Origin: an uncultured Candidatus Saccharibacteria bacterium
GTDB lineage: Bacteria > Patescibacteriota > Minisyncoccia > UBA6257
NCBI GenBank assembly: GCA_964479005.1
Contig: CAYZJA010000001.1
Coordinates: 96,001 to 160,000, forward strand
Reading direction: 5' to 3'
Length of the DNA: 64,000 nucleotides
Shown: one piece after another, positions 3,044 to 35,000 of the stretch
How the letters are laid out: each line of letters opens with the position of its first letter
How positions within the stretch are numbered: the first letter of the stretch is position 1
Notes under the pieces: model-generated
What the model saw: the letters and a program-made list of their open reading frames with translations, nothing else
Databases searched by the model: none
Told to the model about the DNA's origin: nothing
Position numbers and translations under genes: made by a program

Positions 3044-3511
3044 ATGAGGAGAAAACATAGACAAGAAAAAGAATATGAACCAGATTTAATTTATAAAAGC
3101 GCTTTAGCGACGCGTTTTATTAATTATTTAATGAAAGATGGAAAAAAGTCAGTGGCGCAGAGAGTTCTTTATAACACAATGGAAAATATTAAAAAACAAA
3201 CTAAGCAAGATCCATTGAGTATTTTTGATTTAGCTATTAAAAATGTTTCACCAGAATTAGAAGTTAAAAGCAGAAGAATAGGAGGCGCTAATTATCAAGT
3301 TCCTCAAGCGGTTCCTGAATATAGAAAAACCACATTAGCTTGCCGTTGGATTATTAATATGGCCCGGGCTAAAAAAGGAAAAACAATGGCAGAAAGATTA
3401 GCAGAAGAATTAATTCTGGCTTCGAAAAACGAGGGAGCAGCTATAAAGAAAAAATTAGATATTCATCGTATGGCTGAGGCAAATCGCGCTTTTGCTCGTT
3501 TTCGTTTCTAA
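3044..3511 (+). CDS. rpsG: 30S ribosomal protein S7
   Basis: Conserved S7 sequence; position after rpsL. Confidence 0.95.
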
Positions 3512-5749: not shown

Positions 5750-6949
5750 ATGGCAGAAAAAGAGAAATTTGTTCGTGGAAAAACACATATGAATGTAGGA
5801 ACCATTGGTCATATTGATCATGGTAAAACTACCTTAACAGCAGCTATTTCACATGCGCTTCACCTGAAAGGTTTAGCGAAGAAGGCCCTTAATGTTGCTG
5901 AAATTGATAAGGCTCCTGAAGAAAAAGCCCGTGGTATTACCATTAACGTTCATCATTCCGAGTATGAAACTGAAAAAAGGCATTATGCTCATATCGATTG
6001 TCCAGGACATATTGATTATATTAAAAATATGGTCACTGGATCAGCGCAAATGGATGGCGCCATCCTAGTAGTTTCTGCTCCTGATGGCCCTATGCCGCAA
6101 ACATTTGAGCATATTCTTTTAGCTCGTCAAGTTGGAGTTCCTGCAATGGTAGTCTTTTTGAATAAAACAGACATGGTTCAGGATAAAGAATTATTGGAAT
6201 TAGTGGAAACTGAGATAAGGGAACTTTTAACTAAGAATGGTTATCCTGGAAATGATGTTCCTATAATAAAGGGATCATCTTTAAAAGCATTGGATGCTAA
6301 ATCTGTTGATGATACTGAAATAAAGCCAATATTTGAATTAATAGATGCGCTTGATTCTTATTTCCCTGATCCAGTAAGGGATACAGATAAACCATTTCTT
6401 ATGCCTATTGAAGATATATTCTCTATAGAAGGACGTGGTACTGTAGCTACTGGAAGAGTTGAAAGAGGAAGAATTAATATCAATGATGAAGTAGAAATTA
6501 TAGGATATCATCCAACAGTAAAAACTGTTGTGACTGGCCTTGAAATGTTTAATAAATCTCTTGATGAAAGCCAAGCTGGAGATAACGTAGGCGTTCTATT
6601 AAGAGGAACTAAGAAAGAAGAAATAAGGAGAGGCCAAGTATTAGCTAAGCCAGGTTCTATTACTCCTCATACAGAGTTTGAAGCAGAGGTTTATATCTTA
6701 GCCAAAGAAGAAGGCGGAAGGCATACGCCGTTCTTTAGTGGCTATAAGCCCCAATTCTTTATTCGCACAGCTGATGTTACAGGAGAAGTTACTCTTCCTG
6801 AAGGAGTAGAAATGGTTATGCCTGGCGATAATGTAAAGTTTAAAGTTAAATTAATTGCTCCAGTTGCGTTAGACGATACTTCTCGTTTTGCCATTAGAGA
6901 AGGTGGACGAACTGTAGGTGCTGGAGTTGTTACAAAAATTATAAAGTAA
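5750..6949 (+). CDS. tuf: elongation factor Tu
   Basis: [26 protein letters not shown]; 399 aa. Confidence 0.97.
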
Positions 6950-25160: not shown

Positions 25161-25167
25161 CTATTGA

Positions 25168-25586
25168 CGATTGAACCTATAAGCCGAATTCTGTATCCTG
25201 TTAAACAGGACGATAGTCATTTATCTAGCCCTGAAATTACTCTCAGGGTCAAGCGGCCACTTTCTGACAAATGTCAGAACACGAGCCTTGCACCCAGTAA
25301 GGATTTAGCCGTTTCATTCTTGAAATTGCTTTCAAGACTCACCCTAATTAAAAAATAATTAGGGTGTTTTGAACTTTTCAGTTCAAAACGTCTCTGTTCG
25401 CACCTCTATTCCAGTTGTAAATCCGTCATTAGCGTTACCGCTAAGAGGCAAAAACTGGAGCGATAGCTGTTAGCTATTACCTTTTACCAACTTTGTTTTA
25501 GGCAAAATTGGTGGTGTTCGGACTTTCCTCCCCGCCTAAGTTTTGCGAACAAAATTTTGGCGGGGTAACTACCCAGTTCAATCGAG
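25168..25586 (-). ncRNA. rnpB: RNase P RNA (bacterial type)
   Basis: Minus strand reads ...GGGGAGGAAAGTCCGAACACC (P4 5' strand) and ...ACAGAATTCGGCTTATAGGTTCAATCG (P4 3' strand + P1); P1 pairing CGATTGAAC/GTTCAATCG; P3 hairpin ACCCCGCC...GGCGGGG; ~420 nt. Confidence 0.85.
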
Positions 25587-30731: not shown

Positions 30732-31124
30732 ATGAAAAAATTATTATTGATTATAATTAGTTTAGCTCTTATTCTTCTCTTTTCATCAAGGATTAGGGAG
30801 GATTTGCAGACATATCGATTATTAACTGATGAAGTAAAAAGCCTAGAGCAAACAAAAGGCAATATTGAAAAAGAGAGGGAAAAGACTGAGCAACTTTTGG
30901 AAAAGGAAAAGCAAGAAGAGACACTTGAGCAGGCAGCGCGTTTAATGTTAGGACTTAAAAAAAGCGGGGAAGAAGTTATAATGATTTTACCTCCTAAAAA
31001 TTCTTCTGATTCCGAACTTCAAATTAGTACTTCTTCTGATGTTTTACCTGAAAAATCTTTTAATTCCTTTTTTTCCAAAATTTCTCAAATTTGGTATAAT
31101 TTAATAAGAAAATTAAAAAAATAG
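30732..31124 (+). CDS. FtsB/DivIC-like septum formation initiator (TM + coiled coil)
   Basis: N-terminal TM, Glu/Lys coiled coil, C-terminal LGLKKSGEEVIMI resembling the FtsB/DivIC motif. Confidence 0.4.
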   Translation: MKKLLLIIISLALILLFSSRIREDLQTYRLLTDEVKSLEQTKGNIEKEREKTEQLLEKEKQEETLEQAARLMLGLKKSGEEVIMILPPKNSSDSELQISTSSDVLPEKSFNSFFSKISQIWYNLIRKLKK

Positions 31125-31129
31125 ACGTT

Positions 31130-31336
31130 GCGGGCATCGTATAGTGGCAGTACGTAACCTTCCCAAGCCCCCACACCAAACGAGTATCATTGCGAGATTA
31201 GTATAGTGGTAGTACATCACCTTCCCAAGGTGAAGGTGCCGGTCCGATTCCGGTATCTCGCTCCGTTTAAAATTTAAAATACTCGTTGTGGTGTGGGGGC
31301 AAGGTTAAAGTGTGGGTTCGATTCCCATTGTCCGCT
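31130..31336 (+). tRNA. tRNA-Gly(CCC) gene interrupted in the anticodon loop (5' half 31130-31166, 3' half ~31302-31336) by a ~135-bp insert
   Basis: GCGGGCA acceptor pairs with TGTCCGC (one G-U); D arm GTAT/AGTGGCA/GTAC; anticodon stem TAACC...GGTTA split by the insert; loop TTCCCAA; T arm GTGGG-TTCGATT-CCCAT. Confidence 0.55.
31192..31262 (+). tRNA. tRNA-Gly(CCC), complete, nested inside the insert of the outer tRNA
   Basis: Acceptor GCGAGAT/ATCTCGC; D arm GTAT-AGTGGTA-GTAC; anticodon stem TCACC/GGTGA; loop TTCCCAA; T arm GCCGG-TCCGATT-CCGGT; discriminator T. Confidence 0.8.
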
Positions 31337-31419
31337 CAAATTATTTTTTCGTTACTATCCAAAAAGATTGACGAAGTTTCAAGTGCAATATGGTTTTGTA
31401 TAATCTTTTTACATTGCTC

Positions 31420-31448
31420 TTGACAAATAGTTTTACATCGCATATACT
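31420..31448 (+). promoter_or_regulatory. promoter TTGACA-17-TATACT upstream of the GIY-YIG gene
   Basis: Matches the recurring local consensus cTTGACAa-N16/17-TATACT. Confidence 0.4.
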
Positions 31449-31489
31449 GGAGTTAGGTCGTAATAATTAACTATTTCATCACCAAAGCT

Positions 31490-31777
31490 ATGGCTACAAA
31501 AAAATTTAGTCCAACAAGAACAATAACGCAAAAAAACCTCGAAAATGTACCTGGCGACAAGCCAGGTGTCTATCGCATCAAAAACGCGTCAAATGATATT
31601 CTTTACATAGGTAAAGCAAAAGGAGGTAGATTAGATGACAGAATCGCTGAACATAAAGGACAATTCCAAGGTGGAACGAAATTCCAGTATAGATTAACTC
31701 ACAGCAAAGATGCCGCCGAGCGATTAGAGCGTAAAGAAATTCGTGAATGGAAACCGCCTAGAAATAAAGATAAATAA
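31490..31777 (+). CDS. GIY-YIG domain nuclease-like small protein
   Basis: PGVYRIKN...ILYIGKAK; conserved R and E downstream. Confidence 0.6.
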   Translation: MATKKFSPTRTITQKNLENVPGDKPGVYRIKNASNDILYIGKAKGGRLDDRIAEHKGQFQGGTKFQYRLTHSKDAAERLERKEIREWKPPRNKDK

Positions 31778-31780
31778 TTT

Positions 31781-32266
31781 ATGCCCTCTTCGTTAAAAAC
31801 ATACGCGAGCATAGAAGACATCAATAGAATTTATATGAGGGCTAATGCGCATAGTCTTACCGAAAGAATTAATAAGGATAGTGGTCTTGAACAAGATGTT
31901 TTATACATAGAAGCCTTTTTATTGCAAGCAACGTTATTGGAAGGCGTTCTTGTTAATCTTGGTCTAAGATTATTAGAAAGCAAAAAAGAATTAACTGGGC
32001 TTAAAGGTAAAAGATACGTTAAATATGGTTATGATAATGCGATCAATGATTTATATTTAATGAATGCGATAAAAACAAAAGAGTTTAATTTATTAGAGAA
32101 ATATAAATCAAAAAGAAATAAGTATATTCATAATCTATTGTCAAAAAATACGGAGTGTATAGAAAATGAGGTTTTGGATATTCATAATCAGTATAAAGAT
32201 TTTGTTTGGAAAATGATAAAAAAATTGGGGAGATTAGAGAAAAAAAGATTAAGTAAAAAAAAATAA
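31781..32266 (+). CDS. hypothetical all-alpha protein with a C-terminal RNxxxH motif (HEPN-like?)
   Basis: KRNKYIHNL resembles the HEPN/HepT Rx4-6H motif. Confidence 0.25.
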   Translation: MPSSLKTYASIEDINRIYMRANAHSLTERINKDSGLEQDVLYIEAFLLQATLLEGVLVNLGLRLLESKKELTGLKGKRYVKYGYDNAINDLYLMNAIKTKEFNLLEKYKSKRNKYIHNLLSKNTECIENEVLDIHNQYKDFVWKMIKKLGRLEKKRLSKKK

Positions 32267-32270
32267 AACT

Positions 32271-33047
32271 GTGCTTACAAAATTTATTCAAAAATTGCGA
32301 AAAAAGAATAATATGACGCAGGAATTTTTGGCGTCCGAGTTGAATATCTCTCGTCCTACTTATGTTCAAATAGAACAAGGCGAACGGGATTTAACTATCA
32401 CCGAAGCGGAAAAACTAGCTTCTATTTTTGGAATTTCTTTTGAAGATTTTAGACATGGAAAAGATTCTTCAATTACCGCAAAAATTGAAAAGAATAAAAT
32501 CAAACCAAAAATAGGAAAACAAGAGATAAGAATTAACGTCCCGCAAAAAAATCTTAAAAAATTTAAGGAAGTTTTACTTTATGTTTTGTCAAAAGTCGGC
32601 GGTAAATCAAATGTCGGCGAAGCGGTATTATATAAACTGCTTTATTTTATTGATTTTGATTTTTACGAAAAATTTGAGGAACAATTGATTGGCGCGACAT
32701 ATATTAAAAATCATTATGGGCCAACTCCTGTTGAGTTTAAAGCTATTATTGGCAATATGATTCAAAACGATGAAGTCGTAAAAGTTGAGGGAAAATATTT
32801 TAATTATCCACAAAGAAAATATCTGCCAGTTAGACGGCCAGATCTTAATGTTTTATCTGGACGAGAGATAGAACATATTGATGATGTTTTGGCGCGTCTT
32901 GCTGATAAAAATGCTAAAGAAATGGAAAATTACTCCCATGAAGATATTCCGTGGAAAACGGCGGAAAATGGCAAACCACTTTCCTACGAAAGTGTTTTTT
33001 ATCGTGACGAACGTTATTCTGTAAGAAATTATGAAGACGAACTTTAA
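32271..33047 (+). CDS. XRE-family HTH fused to a Panacea (DUF4065/SocA-like) domain; candidate PanA-type antitoxin
   Basis: N-terminal HTH_3 (TQEFLASELNISRPTYVQIEQGER); C-terminal KLLYFIDFDFYEKF...HYGP resembling DUF4065. Confidence 0.5.
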   Translation: MLTKFIQKLRKKNNMTQEFLASELNISRPTYVQIEQGERDLTITEAEKLASIFGISFEDFRHGKDSSITAKIEKNKIKPKIGKQEIRINVPQKNLKKFKEVLLYVLSKVGGKSNVGEAVLYKLLYFIDFDFYEKFEEQLIGATYIKNHYGPTPVEFKAIIGNMIQNDEVVKVEGKYFNYPQRKYLPVRRPDLNVLSGREIEHIDDVLARLADKNAKEMENYSHEDIPWKTAENGKPLSYESVFYRDERYSVRNYEDEL

Positions 33048-33366
33048 TGAACTATCTGAATTTTCTAAGGAATTTAAGCGGTTTTCAAAAAAATATAAAT
33101 CGTTATATGATGACTTAGAAGAGTTTAAGCGCATCGTTGATGTTGTACCATTAGGAAATAGCAAGCATTTTAATATTATTACACAAAACGAGCAATGCAC
33201 CGTTATTAAGGCTCGTTTCTTTTGTCGTTATTTAAAACACTCTTCTTTAAGGATTATCTACGCTTTTTACAGCCAAAATTGTAAAATTGAGTTTATTGAG
33301 ATATATTTTAAAGGCGAAAAAAATAATGAGGATCGCGAGAGAATCAAAGATTACTTGAAAGATTAA
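33031..33366 (+). CDS. RelE/ParE-fold toxin-like protein, overlaps the antitoxin by 17 nt
   Basis: 111 aa; LRIIYAF...IEFIEIYFKG pattern typical of RelE/ParE; translationally coupled arrangement. Confidence 0.4.
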   Translation: MKTNFNELSEFSKEFKRFSKKYKSLYDDLEEFKRIVDVVPLGNSKHFNIITQNEQCTVIKARFFCRYLKHSSLRIIYAFYSQNCKIEFIEIYFKGEKNNEDRERIKDYLKD

Positions 33367-33375
33367 AAATAGATT

Positions 33376-33843
33376 TTGTTATTCTCTCACAGAAAATTTA
33401 TGGATAAAAGAATAATCAGGGAAAAATTGGATTTAATCAGAGGAGAAGTTATCTCATCCGCCACAAGAGTTGAGTTCGTTCTCGGCTATCGCTTAAGAAG
33501 GTATTTTTTTCCTAAAAGTAATAATAAAGCAACAATTCTTTTTTGGAATGTTATGAATACTCCTTACCTTACTTTTGATAATAAAATTAGTATTTATGAA
33601 TCAATACCTTATTTTAAAAAATTGAAAGGTTATCCTACTATTAAAAAATCTTTGAGATTTGTTCAGAGGTTGAGAAATACAATGGCTCATTGGGATTTAG
33701 ATGAAAAGAAAAGCGATCTTAAAAATATTTTTATGTTCACATTAGTTGGGAAATATAGAAAAATAACAATTAACGATAACTTGATTGAAAATTATAGAAA
33801 ACAGATTACTTTTCTTCTAAAAAAATTTGGTTATAGTAGATGA
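33376..33843 (+). CDS. hypothetical protein with an RNxxAHW motif (HEPN-like?)
   Basis: FVQRLRNTMAHWDLD resembles HepT-type Rx4HxY. Confidence 0.25.
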   Translation: MLFSHRKFMDKRIIREKLDLIRGEVISSATRVEFVLGYRLRRYFFPKSNNKATILFWNVMNTPYLTFDNKISIYESIPYFKKLKGYPTIKKSLRFVQRLRNTMAHWDLDEKKSDLKNIFMFTLVGKYRKITINDNLIENYRKQITFLLKKFGYSR

Positions 33844-33917
33844 AGCTTGACGAGGGATTATCTATTTAGATGAAATCTTTTTTGTTTTCTCACTCTTATC
33901 TTAAAAAGATAATATAC

Positions 33918-35000
33918 TCAAATTATTCTTCCGCCGCCTAAGCATTTATCCTTTTGATAAAATACAGCAAATTGACCTGGGCAGGGAGCAAAGACGCCTT
34001 TTTTAAAGATAATCTTTAATTTTCTTTTTTCTGGAATTAAACAAGCTTGCGATAGTTTTTGTTGATAGCGGGTTTTAACTTGCGCATGAATAGATTTTAT
34101 CATTCTTTTTCCTGAAATCAAATGATATGGAAAAACAAACAGCTCTTTTTTATAAAGAGTTTTCTTATTTTTAGTAACAAAAAGTGTGTTTTTATTCTTA
34201 TCCCAGCCTGCTACAAAATATGGACCCCCAGATAATTTTATACCTTTTCGTTGGCCTAAAGTAAAAAAATGTAGCCCTTGATGTTTAGTCAGTATATTTC
34301 CTTTTAAATCTAAAACTGGTCCTTGTTTTTCACCAACCTTTTCTTTAAGAAAGGGACAAACTGATTGGCCAGCAACAAAGCAGAAATCTTGGCTTTGTTT
34401 TTTCTTAATAAAAAATTTGAAACCTTGCTTTTTAGCAATTTTATATATGTCTTTTTTTATATAATTTGCTAATGGAAAAATAATATGAGCAAGATATTTT
34501 TGTGGTAATAAGCATAAATTATATGATTGGTCTTTATTTTTATCTCGCGCTTTTAAAAGCTCATATTTTTTGGTTCTATTGTTTAATCTGAGTCGCGCAT
34601 AGTGGCCAGTGGCGATATATTGAATCTTGTGTTTTCTTGCCCATTGCAATAACTGTTTAAATTTAAAATTAGGGTTACAAATAACGCAGGGGTTTGGAGT
34701 TCTTAGATTTTTCCATTCGGAAATAAAATAATCAACAACTTCTTTTTGAAAATCTTTTCTGGCATCTATAATATAGTAGGGGACATCTAGTTTTTTGCAA
34801 ATGTTCTTGGCGATTTTCAAAGACTCCTTAGTGCAAAAAGGGTTTTCTTTAAAAGGATTTAATTTGTTTTGCCAGATAGGTAGTTTTAAAGAAACGCCAA
34901 TTGGGTTCCACCCTTGCTTTTTTAATAATATTAAAGCCATGGAAGAATCTATTCCACCTGACATTCCAACAACAATTTTTTTACCCTTACCTAATTCCAT
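33918..35000 (-). CDS. mnmA: tRNA-specific 2-thiouridylase MnmA
   Basis: PP-loop VVGMSGGIDSS; catalytic Cys region. Confidence 0.9.
   Translation of the reverse strand: MELGKGKKIVVGMSGGIDSSMALILLKKQGWNPIGVSLKLPIWQNKLNPFKENPFCTKESLKIAKNICKKLDVPYYIIDARKDFQKEVVDYFISEWKNLRTPNPCVICNPNFKFKQLLQWARKHKIQYIATGHYARLRLNNRTKKYELLKARDKNKDQSYNLCLLPQKYLAHIIFPLANYIKKDIYKIAKKQGFKFFIKKKQSQDFCFVAGQSVCPFLKEKVGEKQGPVLDLKGNILTKHQGLHFFTLGQRKGIKLSGGPYFVAGWDKNKNTLFVTKNKKTLYKKELFVFPYHLISGKRMIKSIHAQVKTRYQQKLSQACLIPEKRKLKIIFKKGVFAPCPGQFAVFYQKDKCLGGGRII

Follow-up and report, generated by a model that had tools for sequence, protein, structure and literature searches.

How does one tRNA gene come to lie, complete, inside the anticodon loop of another gene for the same tRNA? 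This question is raised by a nested tRNA-Gly(CCC) locus in a 64-kb window (the whole stretch of DNA that was analyzed, and to which coordinates refer unless another contig is named) from a low-GC (~32%) Patescibacteria bacterium. We propose that the resident tRNA-Gly(CCC) gene has been split by a 132-bp non-autonomous mobile element whose cargo tRNA replaces the dead resident gene, a reading to which we assign a probability of roughly 0.8. Judged from its sequence, the insert is a member of a large mobile-element family of Patescibacteria.

The nested arrangement is well defined. A first-pass annotation had described two outer tRNA halves, a pair of inverted repeats, and a complete inner tRNA-Gly(CCC), and this anatomy is borne out by the sequence, by ARAGORN, and by Rfam. 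The outer 5' half up to the loop TTCCCAA is GCGGGCATCGTATAGTGGCAGTACGTAACCTTCCCAA (31130-31166), and the inverted repeats were first read as GCCCCCACACCAAACGAGTAT (31167-31187) and ATACTCGTTGTGGTGTGGGGGC (31279-31300). The two repeats pair over 12 bp, one bulged G, and a further 9 bp; the terminal arms proper are 20 and 21 nt long, with one base bulged. Zero matches to the 21-mer repeat are expected in shuffled sequence. Scans of the locus with ARAGORN and Rfam call the inner gene and miss the outer one, and ARAGORN run with intron models on the locus likewise did not call the outer gene. When positions 31166-31301 are removed, ARAGORN calls the remainder as tRNA-Gly(ccc). This joined sequence is the same as the intact tRNA of a related locus (L005), which scores 61.0 bits against the Rfam tRNA model (RF00005; gathering score, 29). 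Thus, the outer halves are recognized as a tRNA once the insert is taken out.

Across both halves, the inner and outer tRNA sequences agree at 81-83%. The inner (cargo) tRNA has a bacterial-type U73 discriminator, and its CCA is not encoded. Its T-loop, TCCGATT, had been singled out as unusual, and it is genuine: C55 (at 31244) is fixed in all 10 contigs that carry the locus. A U at T-loop position 55 is near-universal in tRNAs. The 221-nt region is predicted to fold into a nested double cloverleaf joined by the repeat stem (-86 kcal/mol, z = -6.8).

A long inverted repeat combined with duplicated tRNA sequence could mislead an assembler, as the annotation had cautioned, and one contig (L016) does end inside the region. 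However, the 207-bp arrangement (31130-31336) is 100% identical in 13 loci representing 10 distinct contigs. These come from three JGI and seven Logan assemblies, and thus from two pipelines and 10 samples, and one of the contigs is 551 kb long. An identical locus in 10 independent contigs therefore excludes an assembly artefact, the probability of which we consider negligible.

Table 1. Features of the nested tRNA-Gly(CCC) locus (positions in the 64-kb window) and of nuclease-encoding family members on other contigs (contig name before the position)
Feature	Position	Strand	Remarks
Promoter-like site upstream of outer tRNA	31072..31100	+	TTTCCA, 17-nt spacer, TATAAT, with TG; consensus match only
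Resident (outer) tRNA-Gly(CCC), 5' part	31130..31167	+	Acceptor, D arm, anticodon stem 5' strand, loop TTCCCAA, G39
Left CAAG copy of target duplication	31164-31167	+	Inside outer 5' part
Inserted element proper	31168..31299	+	132 bp; absent from 11 related loci
Left terminal inverted repeat	31168..31187	+	CCCCCACACCAAACGAGTAT; arm without extra base
Cargo (inner) tRNA-Gly(CCC)	31192..31262	+	Complete; ARAGORN call; Rfam tRNA, 64.6 bits
Spacer, cargo tRNA to right repeat	31263..31278	+	16 nt; reverse complement resembles 5' leader of nuclease open reading frame in full-length family members
Right terminal inverted repeat	31279..31299	+	ATACTCGTTGTGGTGTGGGGG; arm with one extra (bulged) base
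Resident tRNA-Gly(CCC), 3' part	31300..31336	+	Anticodon stem 3' strand, variable loop, T arm, acceptor strand, discriminator T (31336)
Right CAAG copy of target duplication	31300-31303	+	Start of resident 3' part
~300-bp nuclease element	L038 213-519		Repeats around GIY-YIG open reading frame
~300-bp nuclease element	L053 4961-5267		Repeats around GIY-YIG open reading frame
~300-bp nuclease element	L069 4037-4337		Repeats around GIY-YIG open reading frame
~300-bp nuclease element	L098 61-357		Repeats around GIY-YIG open reading frame
~300-bp nuclease element	L105 7177-7485		Repeats around GIY-YIG open reading frame
~300-bp nuclease element	L137 6831-7135		Repeats around GIY-YIG open reading frame
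~300-bp nuclease element	L142 3009-3314		Repeats around GIY-YIG open reading frame
~300-bp nuclease element	L145 5126-5430		Repeats around GIY-YIG open reading frame
~300-bp nuclease elements	L147, L148, L151		Repeats around GIY-YIG open reading frame

Related loci preserve the empty site. Using LepA, and later the DivIC-like protein encoded directly upstream of the locus, as anchors, we found 11 related loci (10 distinct sequences: L001, L002, L003, L005, L153, L154, L156, L157, L158, and L159) with the same gene order and an uninterrupted tRNA-Gly(CCC). These relatives share 82-94% identity in DivIC or 85-96% identity in LepA with the window. Each has one tRNA-Gly(CCC) between divIC and mnmA; the annotation had weighed the possibility that relatives carry two ordinary tandem genes, and of this the ordinary uninterrupted gene is found but the tandem pair is not. 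In L005 and L154, the intact tRNA matches the joined outer halves of the window with 100% identity. The empty site reads CTTCCCAAGGTTAAAG, while the window reads CTTCCCAAG/CCCCC...GGGGG/CAAGGTTAAAG (slashes mark the junctions), such that CCCAAGG with its single CAAG has become CCCAAG/element/CAAGG. The insert proper is therefore 132 bp, and four target bases (CAAG) were duplicated. The annotated split of the gene thus stands, with its bounds refined to an element at 31168-31299 plus a CAAG on both sides. The CAAG target spans anticodon-loop positions 36-38 and stem base 39. By this comparison, the insertion is the derived state, and recent enough that the outer halves carry no change.

The terminal repeats define a family that is dispersed through Patescibacteria. 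We scanned metagenome contigs with the motif GCCCCCACACCA, 0-1 nt, AACGAG, which matched at least 120 contigs, against our rough chance expectation of a few tens of matches. Pairing left and right arms gave 97 distinct elements among the matches listed, the set to which all counts of copies below refer. Family members have the termini CCCCCACACCA(N)AACGAG ... CTCGTT(N)TGGTGTGGGGG, with the extra base in one arm, and fall into size classes of ~70-76, 95-99, 134, and 305 nt. The element at 31168-31299 is a non-autonomous member of this CCCCCACACCA...TGGTGTGGGGG inverted-repeat family, with a tRNA as its cargo. Of the 97 copies, 32 have 4-bp flanks that repeat perfectly in direct orientation, 15 have direct-repeat flanks with one mismatch, and one has flanks that match in inverted orientation. 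Perfect direct repeats of 4-5 bp number 39, compared with ~4 in a shuffled-flank control. We find that the family target is YNNR, mostly CAAG/CTTG or TCAA/TTGA; hairpin-structured target sites are not preferred among 33 reconstructed sites (mean z 0.0). Rfam, searched at gathering scores across 16 element-bearing loci, holds no family for these hairpins.

Many copies of the family lie within protein-coding genes. Twenty-nine of the 97 are inside long open frames, and in 23 of these 29 the element plus its duplication is a multiple of three. Such intragenic copies are mostly read in one orientation, giving the peptide xPHTKR...RYGVG(A/V). They include in-frame copies in housekeeping genes (SecA, L118 2565-2635; LeuRS, L040 7043-7116; Pth, L070 9378-9448) and other short in-frame copies such as L061 5561-5628 and L079 2119-2192. 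Two or three family copies can occur within ~10 kb, as in L040 (918-987, 6154-6232, and 7042-7117), L033, L036, L061, L085, and L114, which suggests bursts of proliferation in particular genomes. When open reading frames (ORFs) within 1.5 kb of the repeats were clustered for a classical transposase, only housekeeping genes recurred, with no DDE, HUH, or serine/tyrosine recombinase among them. A viral origin was considered and rejected: in viral contigs, the full 21-mer and a cargo tRNA 28-mer gave 0 matches each, and a looser 17-mer gave 11 matches that were solitary, unpaired, and chance-like.

The window is not the only place where the family carries a tRNA. We detected further tRNA-carrying copies at three scanned loci, L062, L068, and L073 (four copies in all, with two layers in L073). 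All tRNA-carrying insertions lie directly after CTTCCCAAG of tRNA-Gly(CCC), with the cargo always in sense. L062 has the same synteny as the window, and its outer 5' half matches the uninterrupted lineage of L156. There, the outer 5' half, left repeat, and cargo tRNA run straight into the normal downstream flank, with the right repeat and outer 3' half both missing. L073 (6707-6990) has three layers: an intact inner tRNA (6836-6906), a middle tRNA that is split by the inner element and accepted by ARAGORN when joined, and an outermost layer consisting of a 5' half and a degenerate repeat, with the 3' half missing. In L068, the outer gene has acquired a 20-nt palindrome in its anticodon arm and a mutated loop (TTCCTAAA), and ARAGORN no longer reads it as tRNA-Gly when it is joined after removal of the element. 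Thus, in lineages with an older insertion, the outer gene is decayed or partly deleted and the cargo is intact. These loci represent at least four, and probably five, insertion events at the same site and in the same orientation, although a single event, spread by recombination, may account for both the window insertion and that of L062.

The cargo tRNAs resemble one another more than the genes they interrupt. The acceptor stem of the window cargo, GCGAGAT/ATCTCGC, is common to cargo tRNAs at other loci and is not found in resident tRNAs: all cargo stems are GCGAGA(T/G)...(A/C)TCTCGC, as against GCGG(G/A) in resident genes. It follows that the cargo forms a lineage moving with the element rather than having been copied from the local gene. 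The cargo T-loops of L062, L068, and L073 are the canonical TTCGATT. This bears on the idea that tandem or paralogous tRNA-Gly genes were scrambled locally by illegitimate recombination or a template switch, with no mobile element involved. The 81-83% likeness of inner and outer tRNAs over both halves would fit such an event. However, relatives have a single tRNA-Gly at the locus, the repeats belong to a family with at least 120 occurrences elsewhere, and the cargo tRNA groups with the cargos of unrelated genomes rather than with its own outer gene. We therefore regard local rearrangement as highly improbable. Of the options put forward in the first-pass annotation, insertional inactivation of one tRNA-Gly by another comes closest: the inactivation is retained, but the agent is a widespread mobile element, so the notion of a paralogue is not.

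The annotation had also offered a novel tRNA-in-tRNA intron or a split tRNA. According to this RNA-level reading, RNase P and RNase Z free the inner tRNA from a precursor and the outer halves are ligated, yielding two functional tRNA-Gly(CCC). The insert does lie at an ambiguous 36/37/38 position of the anticodon loop, in the region where canonical tRNA introns occur; both outer halves are intact and match a functional orthologue exactly, and the precursor is predicted to fold as a nested cloverleaf. Several lines of evidence nevertheless oppose it. Group I introns have a conserved P3-P9 core and are usually >200 nt long, and the insert, at 132-136 nt including a 71-nt tRNA, is too short for such a core. 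Rfam searches at gathering scores (the window and 16 element-bearing loci) and at E<=10 (31050-31420) returned tRNAs and rRNAs only, with no group I or other intron family. Bulge-helix-bulge (BHB) introns are marked at their exon-intron junctions by a pair of 3-nt bulges with a 4-bp helix between them. Here, in both the minimum-free-energy and centroid folds, a 5-nt bulge is predicted at the 5' junction, and an unbroken helix runs across the 3' junction. The insert instead bears the hallmarks of a transposon: its ends are inverted repeats, 4 bp of target are duplicated, relatives have an empty site, and other family members contain no tRNA. Elements removed at the RNA level would not need the frame-keeping lengths seen in 23 of 29 copies within protein genes. 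Furthermore, the outer genes are decayed or lack the 3' half in L068, L062, and L073. We consider an intron or a split tRNA very unlikely.

How such an element might move is suggested by longer members of the same family. Eight copies of ~305 nt are filled by a single ORF of 82-86 amino acids between the same repeats (Table 1). The encoded protein (85 amino acids) is a GIY-YIG domain alone (Pfam PF01541, 59 bits, residues 2-71) and keeps the catalytic positions Y...YxG...R...HN...E...RExNLK. Its nearest solved structures are UPF0213 protein BH0048 (E 5e-8) and SLX1. Homologues form at least 370 clusters, nearly all of 82-86 amino acids, and the named ones all come from metagenome-assembled genomes of Patescibacteria. 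Three homologues were picked by protein alone; all three genes are bracketed by the same repeats, and two of the three have a perfect TGAA duplication. The dispersed repeats on both sides of the nuclease gene are each one arm of an inverted pair, and neither forms a hairpin alone. We suggest that the 85-amino-acid GIY-YIG nuclease is a candidate mobilizing enzyme that would act in trans on shorter copies, and that the ~300-bp form is a candidate very small autonomous mobile element. Transposition by a bare GIY-YIG domain is a hypothesis that we advance on this basis. By element polarity, the cargo tRNA runs antisense to the position of the nuclease ORF. The resemblance of the 16-nt spacer at 31263-31278 to the reverse complement of the ORF leader suggests that the tRNA took the place of the nuclease ORF in a full-length ancestor.

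We propose the following route from insertion to replacement. The GGTATAAT box of the promoter-like site at 31072-31100 is kept in relatives, and a search between this site and the inner tRNA found no further plus-strand promoter-like sites. The site is thus the sole candidate promoter for the entire nested unit. Lacking a promoter-like site itself, the cargo would rely on the resident tRNA promoter and be transcribed within a single precursor. RNase P would then release the cargo tRNA at its 5' end, to be followed by 3' trimming and CCA addition; RNase III may assist by cutting the 21-bp stem of the paired repeats. The RNase P RNA gene itself lies in the window (25164-25584, minus strand; 110 bits against a gathering score of 100), in a divergent version. 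The outer halves would not be rejoined and would remain paired with the arms of the repeat, their anticodon buried. A hit on an essential single-copy tRNA gene would be survivable only when the element itself provides that tRNA in sense, which amounts to a filter for self-complementation. After the replacement, the host could not lose the element without losing its tRNA-Gly(CCC). Such a filter would account for the same site, the same orientation, the lack of cargo-less copies in tRNA genes, and the re-invasion of earlier cargos. Selection for self-complementing insertions is plausible.

Several points weigh against replacement of the resident gene by the cargo. The outer halves in the window have no disabling mutation; this fits a recent insertion, and the death of the gene is thus not proven by its sequence. 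With C55, the cargo in the window population may be a weak tRNA that functions poorly; a different tRNA-Gly may decode GGG codons. Given targets of 4 bp, chance does not easily account for at least four hits on one site. The 64-kb window contains neither the 85-amino-acid nuclease gene nor a second family copy. Finally, transposition of DNA has, to our knowledge, never been demonstrated for a hydrolytic nuclease consisting of a single GIY-YIG domain.

The recurrence at one site raises the alternative of targeted homing, in which something specifically steers the tRNA-carrying element to the tRNA-Gly(CCC) anticodon arm, perhaps recognition of its sequence or structure by a nuclease acting in trans, or excision and insertion through matching CAAG overhangs, rather than the element arriving by chance and being retained by selection. 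At least four and probably five events share site and orientation (the window, L062, L068, and the two layers of L073), and L062 belongs to a different sub-lineage with its own empty-site relative, L156. No tRNA-carrying copy was found at any other site among the 97 copies, and the duplication is CAAG, or CAAG with one base decayed, in every case. However, the family overall uses many YNNR targets and shows no preference for hairpins, which mildly favors a filter over targeting. CAAG at positions 36-39 is also present in other tRNAs with an anticodon ending in C, none of which has been hit, and the lethality of hits that are not complemented explains this equally well. Only five cases are known. 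We judge targeted homing to be rather unlikely. A fuller proposal can be framed only tentatively. The element would be a new kind of selfish gene, a homing tRNA that specifically and repeatedly invades its own cognate anticodon loop, kills the resident gene, and takes over its promoter and function, with Russian-doll tRNA genes as the outcome. It would be moved in trans by the smallest autonomous transposon yet seen (~300 bp, with an 85-amino-acid GIY-YIG protein), through cutting by the nuclease and ligation or repair by the host, with no classical transposase. We consider this combination possible but doubtful.

The element shares features with several known systems. Like MITEs (miniature inverted-repeat transposable elements), Rickettsia palindromic elements (RPEs), and the Correia elements of Neisseria, it is short and non-autonomous, with terminal inverted repeats, a short target duplication, and many copies. 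RPEs sit in frame inside housekeeping genes (PMC10969869), as does the present family in SecA, LeuRS, and Pth. Unlike MITEs and RPEs, the present element carries a functional-looking tRNA as cargo, inside a gene for the same tRNA; tRNA cargo is absent from the MITE review (PMC10969869) and from the MITE census searched. The candidate autonomous partner also differs from that of MITEs, being a ~300-bp GIY-YIG element rather than an insertion sequence with a DDE or HUH transposase.

The nuclease recalls the Ssn/NTS system, in which single-domain GIY-YIG nucleases of ~90 amino acids cut single-stranded DNA site-specifically beside hairpin repeats that flank their own genes (Chenal et al. 2025, PMC11893778). 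Those flanking repeats also occur in many extra genomic copies, and the authors liken the layout to an insertion sequence (PMC11893778). The present nuclease is likewise a lone GIY-YIG domain (82-86 amino acids) whose gene lies between dispersed repeats. In contrast, its flanks are inverted copies of each other and not self-contained hairpins, and its family shows actual insertion, with a 4-bp target duplication and empty sites. Copies of the present family also lie inside genes, versus 2% of NTS (PMC11893778). That paper makes no mention of target duplications, insertions into genes, tRNAs, or Patescibacteria.

Integrase-type islands and plasmids in tRNA genes (pNOB8-type) likewise break a tRNA gene, supply replacement sequence, and leave orphan tRNA fragments. 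The Caldiarchaeum tRNA-Thr case (PMC3293823) is an example of integration into a tRNA gene in which the element's own 3' part restores the gene. The outcome of such integration resembles the state of L062, with a 5' fragment and a new tRNA. The present element differs in being 132 bp long, in supplying a whole tRNA and not a 3' part, and in having inverted repeats and a 4-bp duplication instead of long att direct repeats. The insert has no ORF, and none of nine neighboring ORFs scanned against Pfam is an integrase.

With tRNA introns, the insert shares its anticodon-loop position and a structured RNA within the interruption. Some archaeal BHB introns carry a C/D box RNA. The insert differs from tRNA introns in having neither a ribozyme core nor a BHB, and the comparative evidence points to gene death, not splicing. 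A survey of tRNA introns in Patescibacteria reports group I introns only and leaves tRNA-Gly unmentioned (PMC13011429). In the literature searched, we found no MITE or palindromic element with tRNA cargo, no nested bacterial tRNA genes, and no account of this Patescibacteria family. Small inverted-repeat elements, and the disruption of a tRNA gene with its replacement, are known classes of mechanism. The GIY-YIG element and its way into tRNA-Gly(CCC) have a genuine chance of proving new in kind.

Other observations concern family members and tRNA genes beyond the nested locus. Cargo-less copies abut, or lie within ~30 nt of, the ends of genes for tRNA-Tyr (L072 421-480 / L141 4828-4887), tRNA-Pro GGG (L094 1143-1233 / L123 8319-8409), and tRNA-Arg CCG (L084, L092). 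Downstream of the intact resident tRNA-Gly(CCC) of L159 (~1970-2023) is a ~53-nt remnant similar to a degenerate right repeat together with a cargo tRNA's 3' end (ATGGTGTATGGGTGAAATTCTCGTATCTCAC), after which TCAAA of the tRNA flank appears again. This remnant may be the scar of an earlier occupant, and going by L159 the tRNA 3' end looks like a second hotspot. The 20-nt palindrome in the anticodon arm of the dead outer tRNA of L068 (~3175-3230, minus strand) is perfect (CCTGCCTGCCGGCAGGCAGG) and may represent a second kind of small insertion. In L078, the T-loops of tRNA-Thr GGU and tRNA-Tyr GUA apparently read TGCAAAT (G55), as given by a rough parser, with their stems fully paired.

A 2.58-kb island (31335-33927) lies directly 3' of the outer tRNA, bounded by an 11-bp direct repeat, CTCAAATTATT, at 31335-31345 and 33917-33927. 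L005, L002, and L003 lack this island, and in them mnmA directly adjoins the tRNA. The ORFs of the island encode a 95-amino-acid UvrC-N-like GIY-YIG/DUF7508 protein (31490-31777), unknown proteins of 161, 111, and 155 amino acids, and a helix-turn-helix plus SocA/Panacea antitoxin-like protein (32271-33047); there is no integrase. The 95-amino-acid GIY-YIG ORF was considered as a partner of the element and rejected, being UvrC-N-like, not bracketed by repeats, and matched to the element nuclease only at a BLASTP E of 0.23. The island appears unrelated to the tRNA insert.

Nested tRNA genes cause errors in tRNA annotation, with standard tools reporting the inner gene only. The locus provides a bacterial example of a tRNA gene that mobile DNA has interrupted at the classic intron position, probably with function preserved, which bears on the origin of tRNA introns and split tRNAs. 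It also presents a miniature element whose cargo gene would cancel the harm of its insertion and make its loss costly; no such addiction-like strategy was found for MITEs in the literature searched. If the nuclease is indeed the mobilizing enzyme, the family would include a very small autonomous element with an unusual mechanism, and Ssn-like nucleases would gain a biological role.

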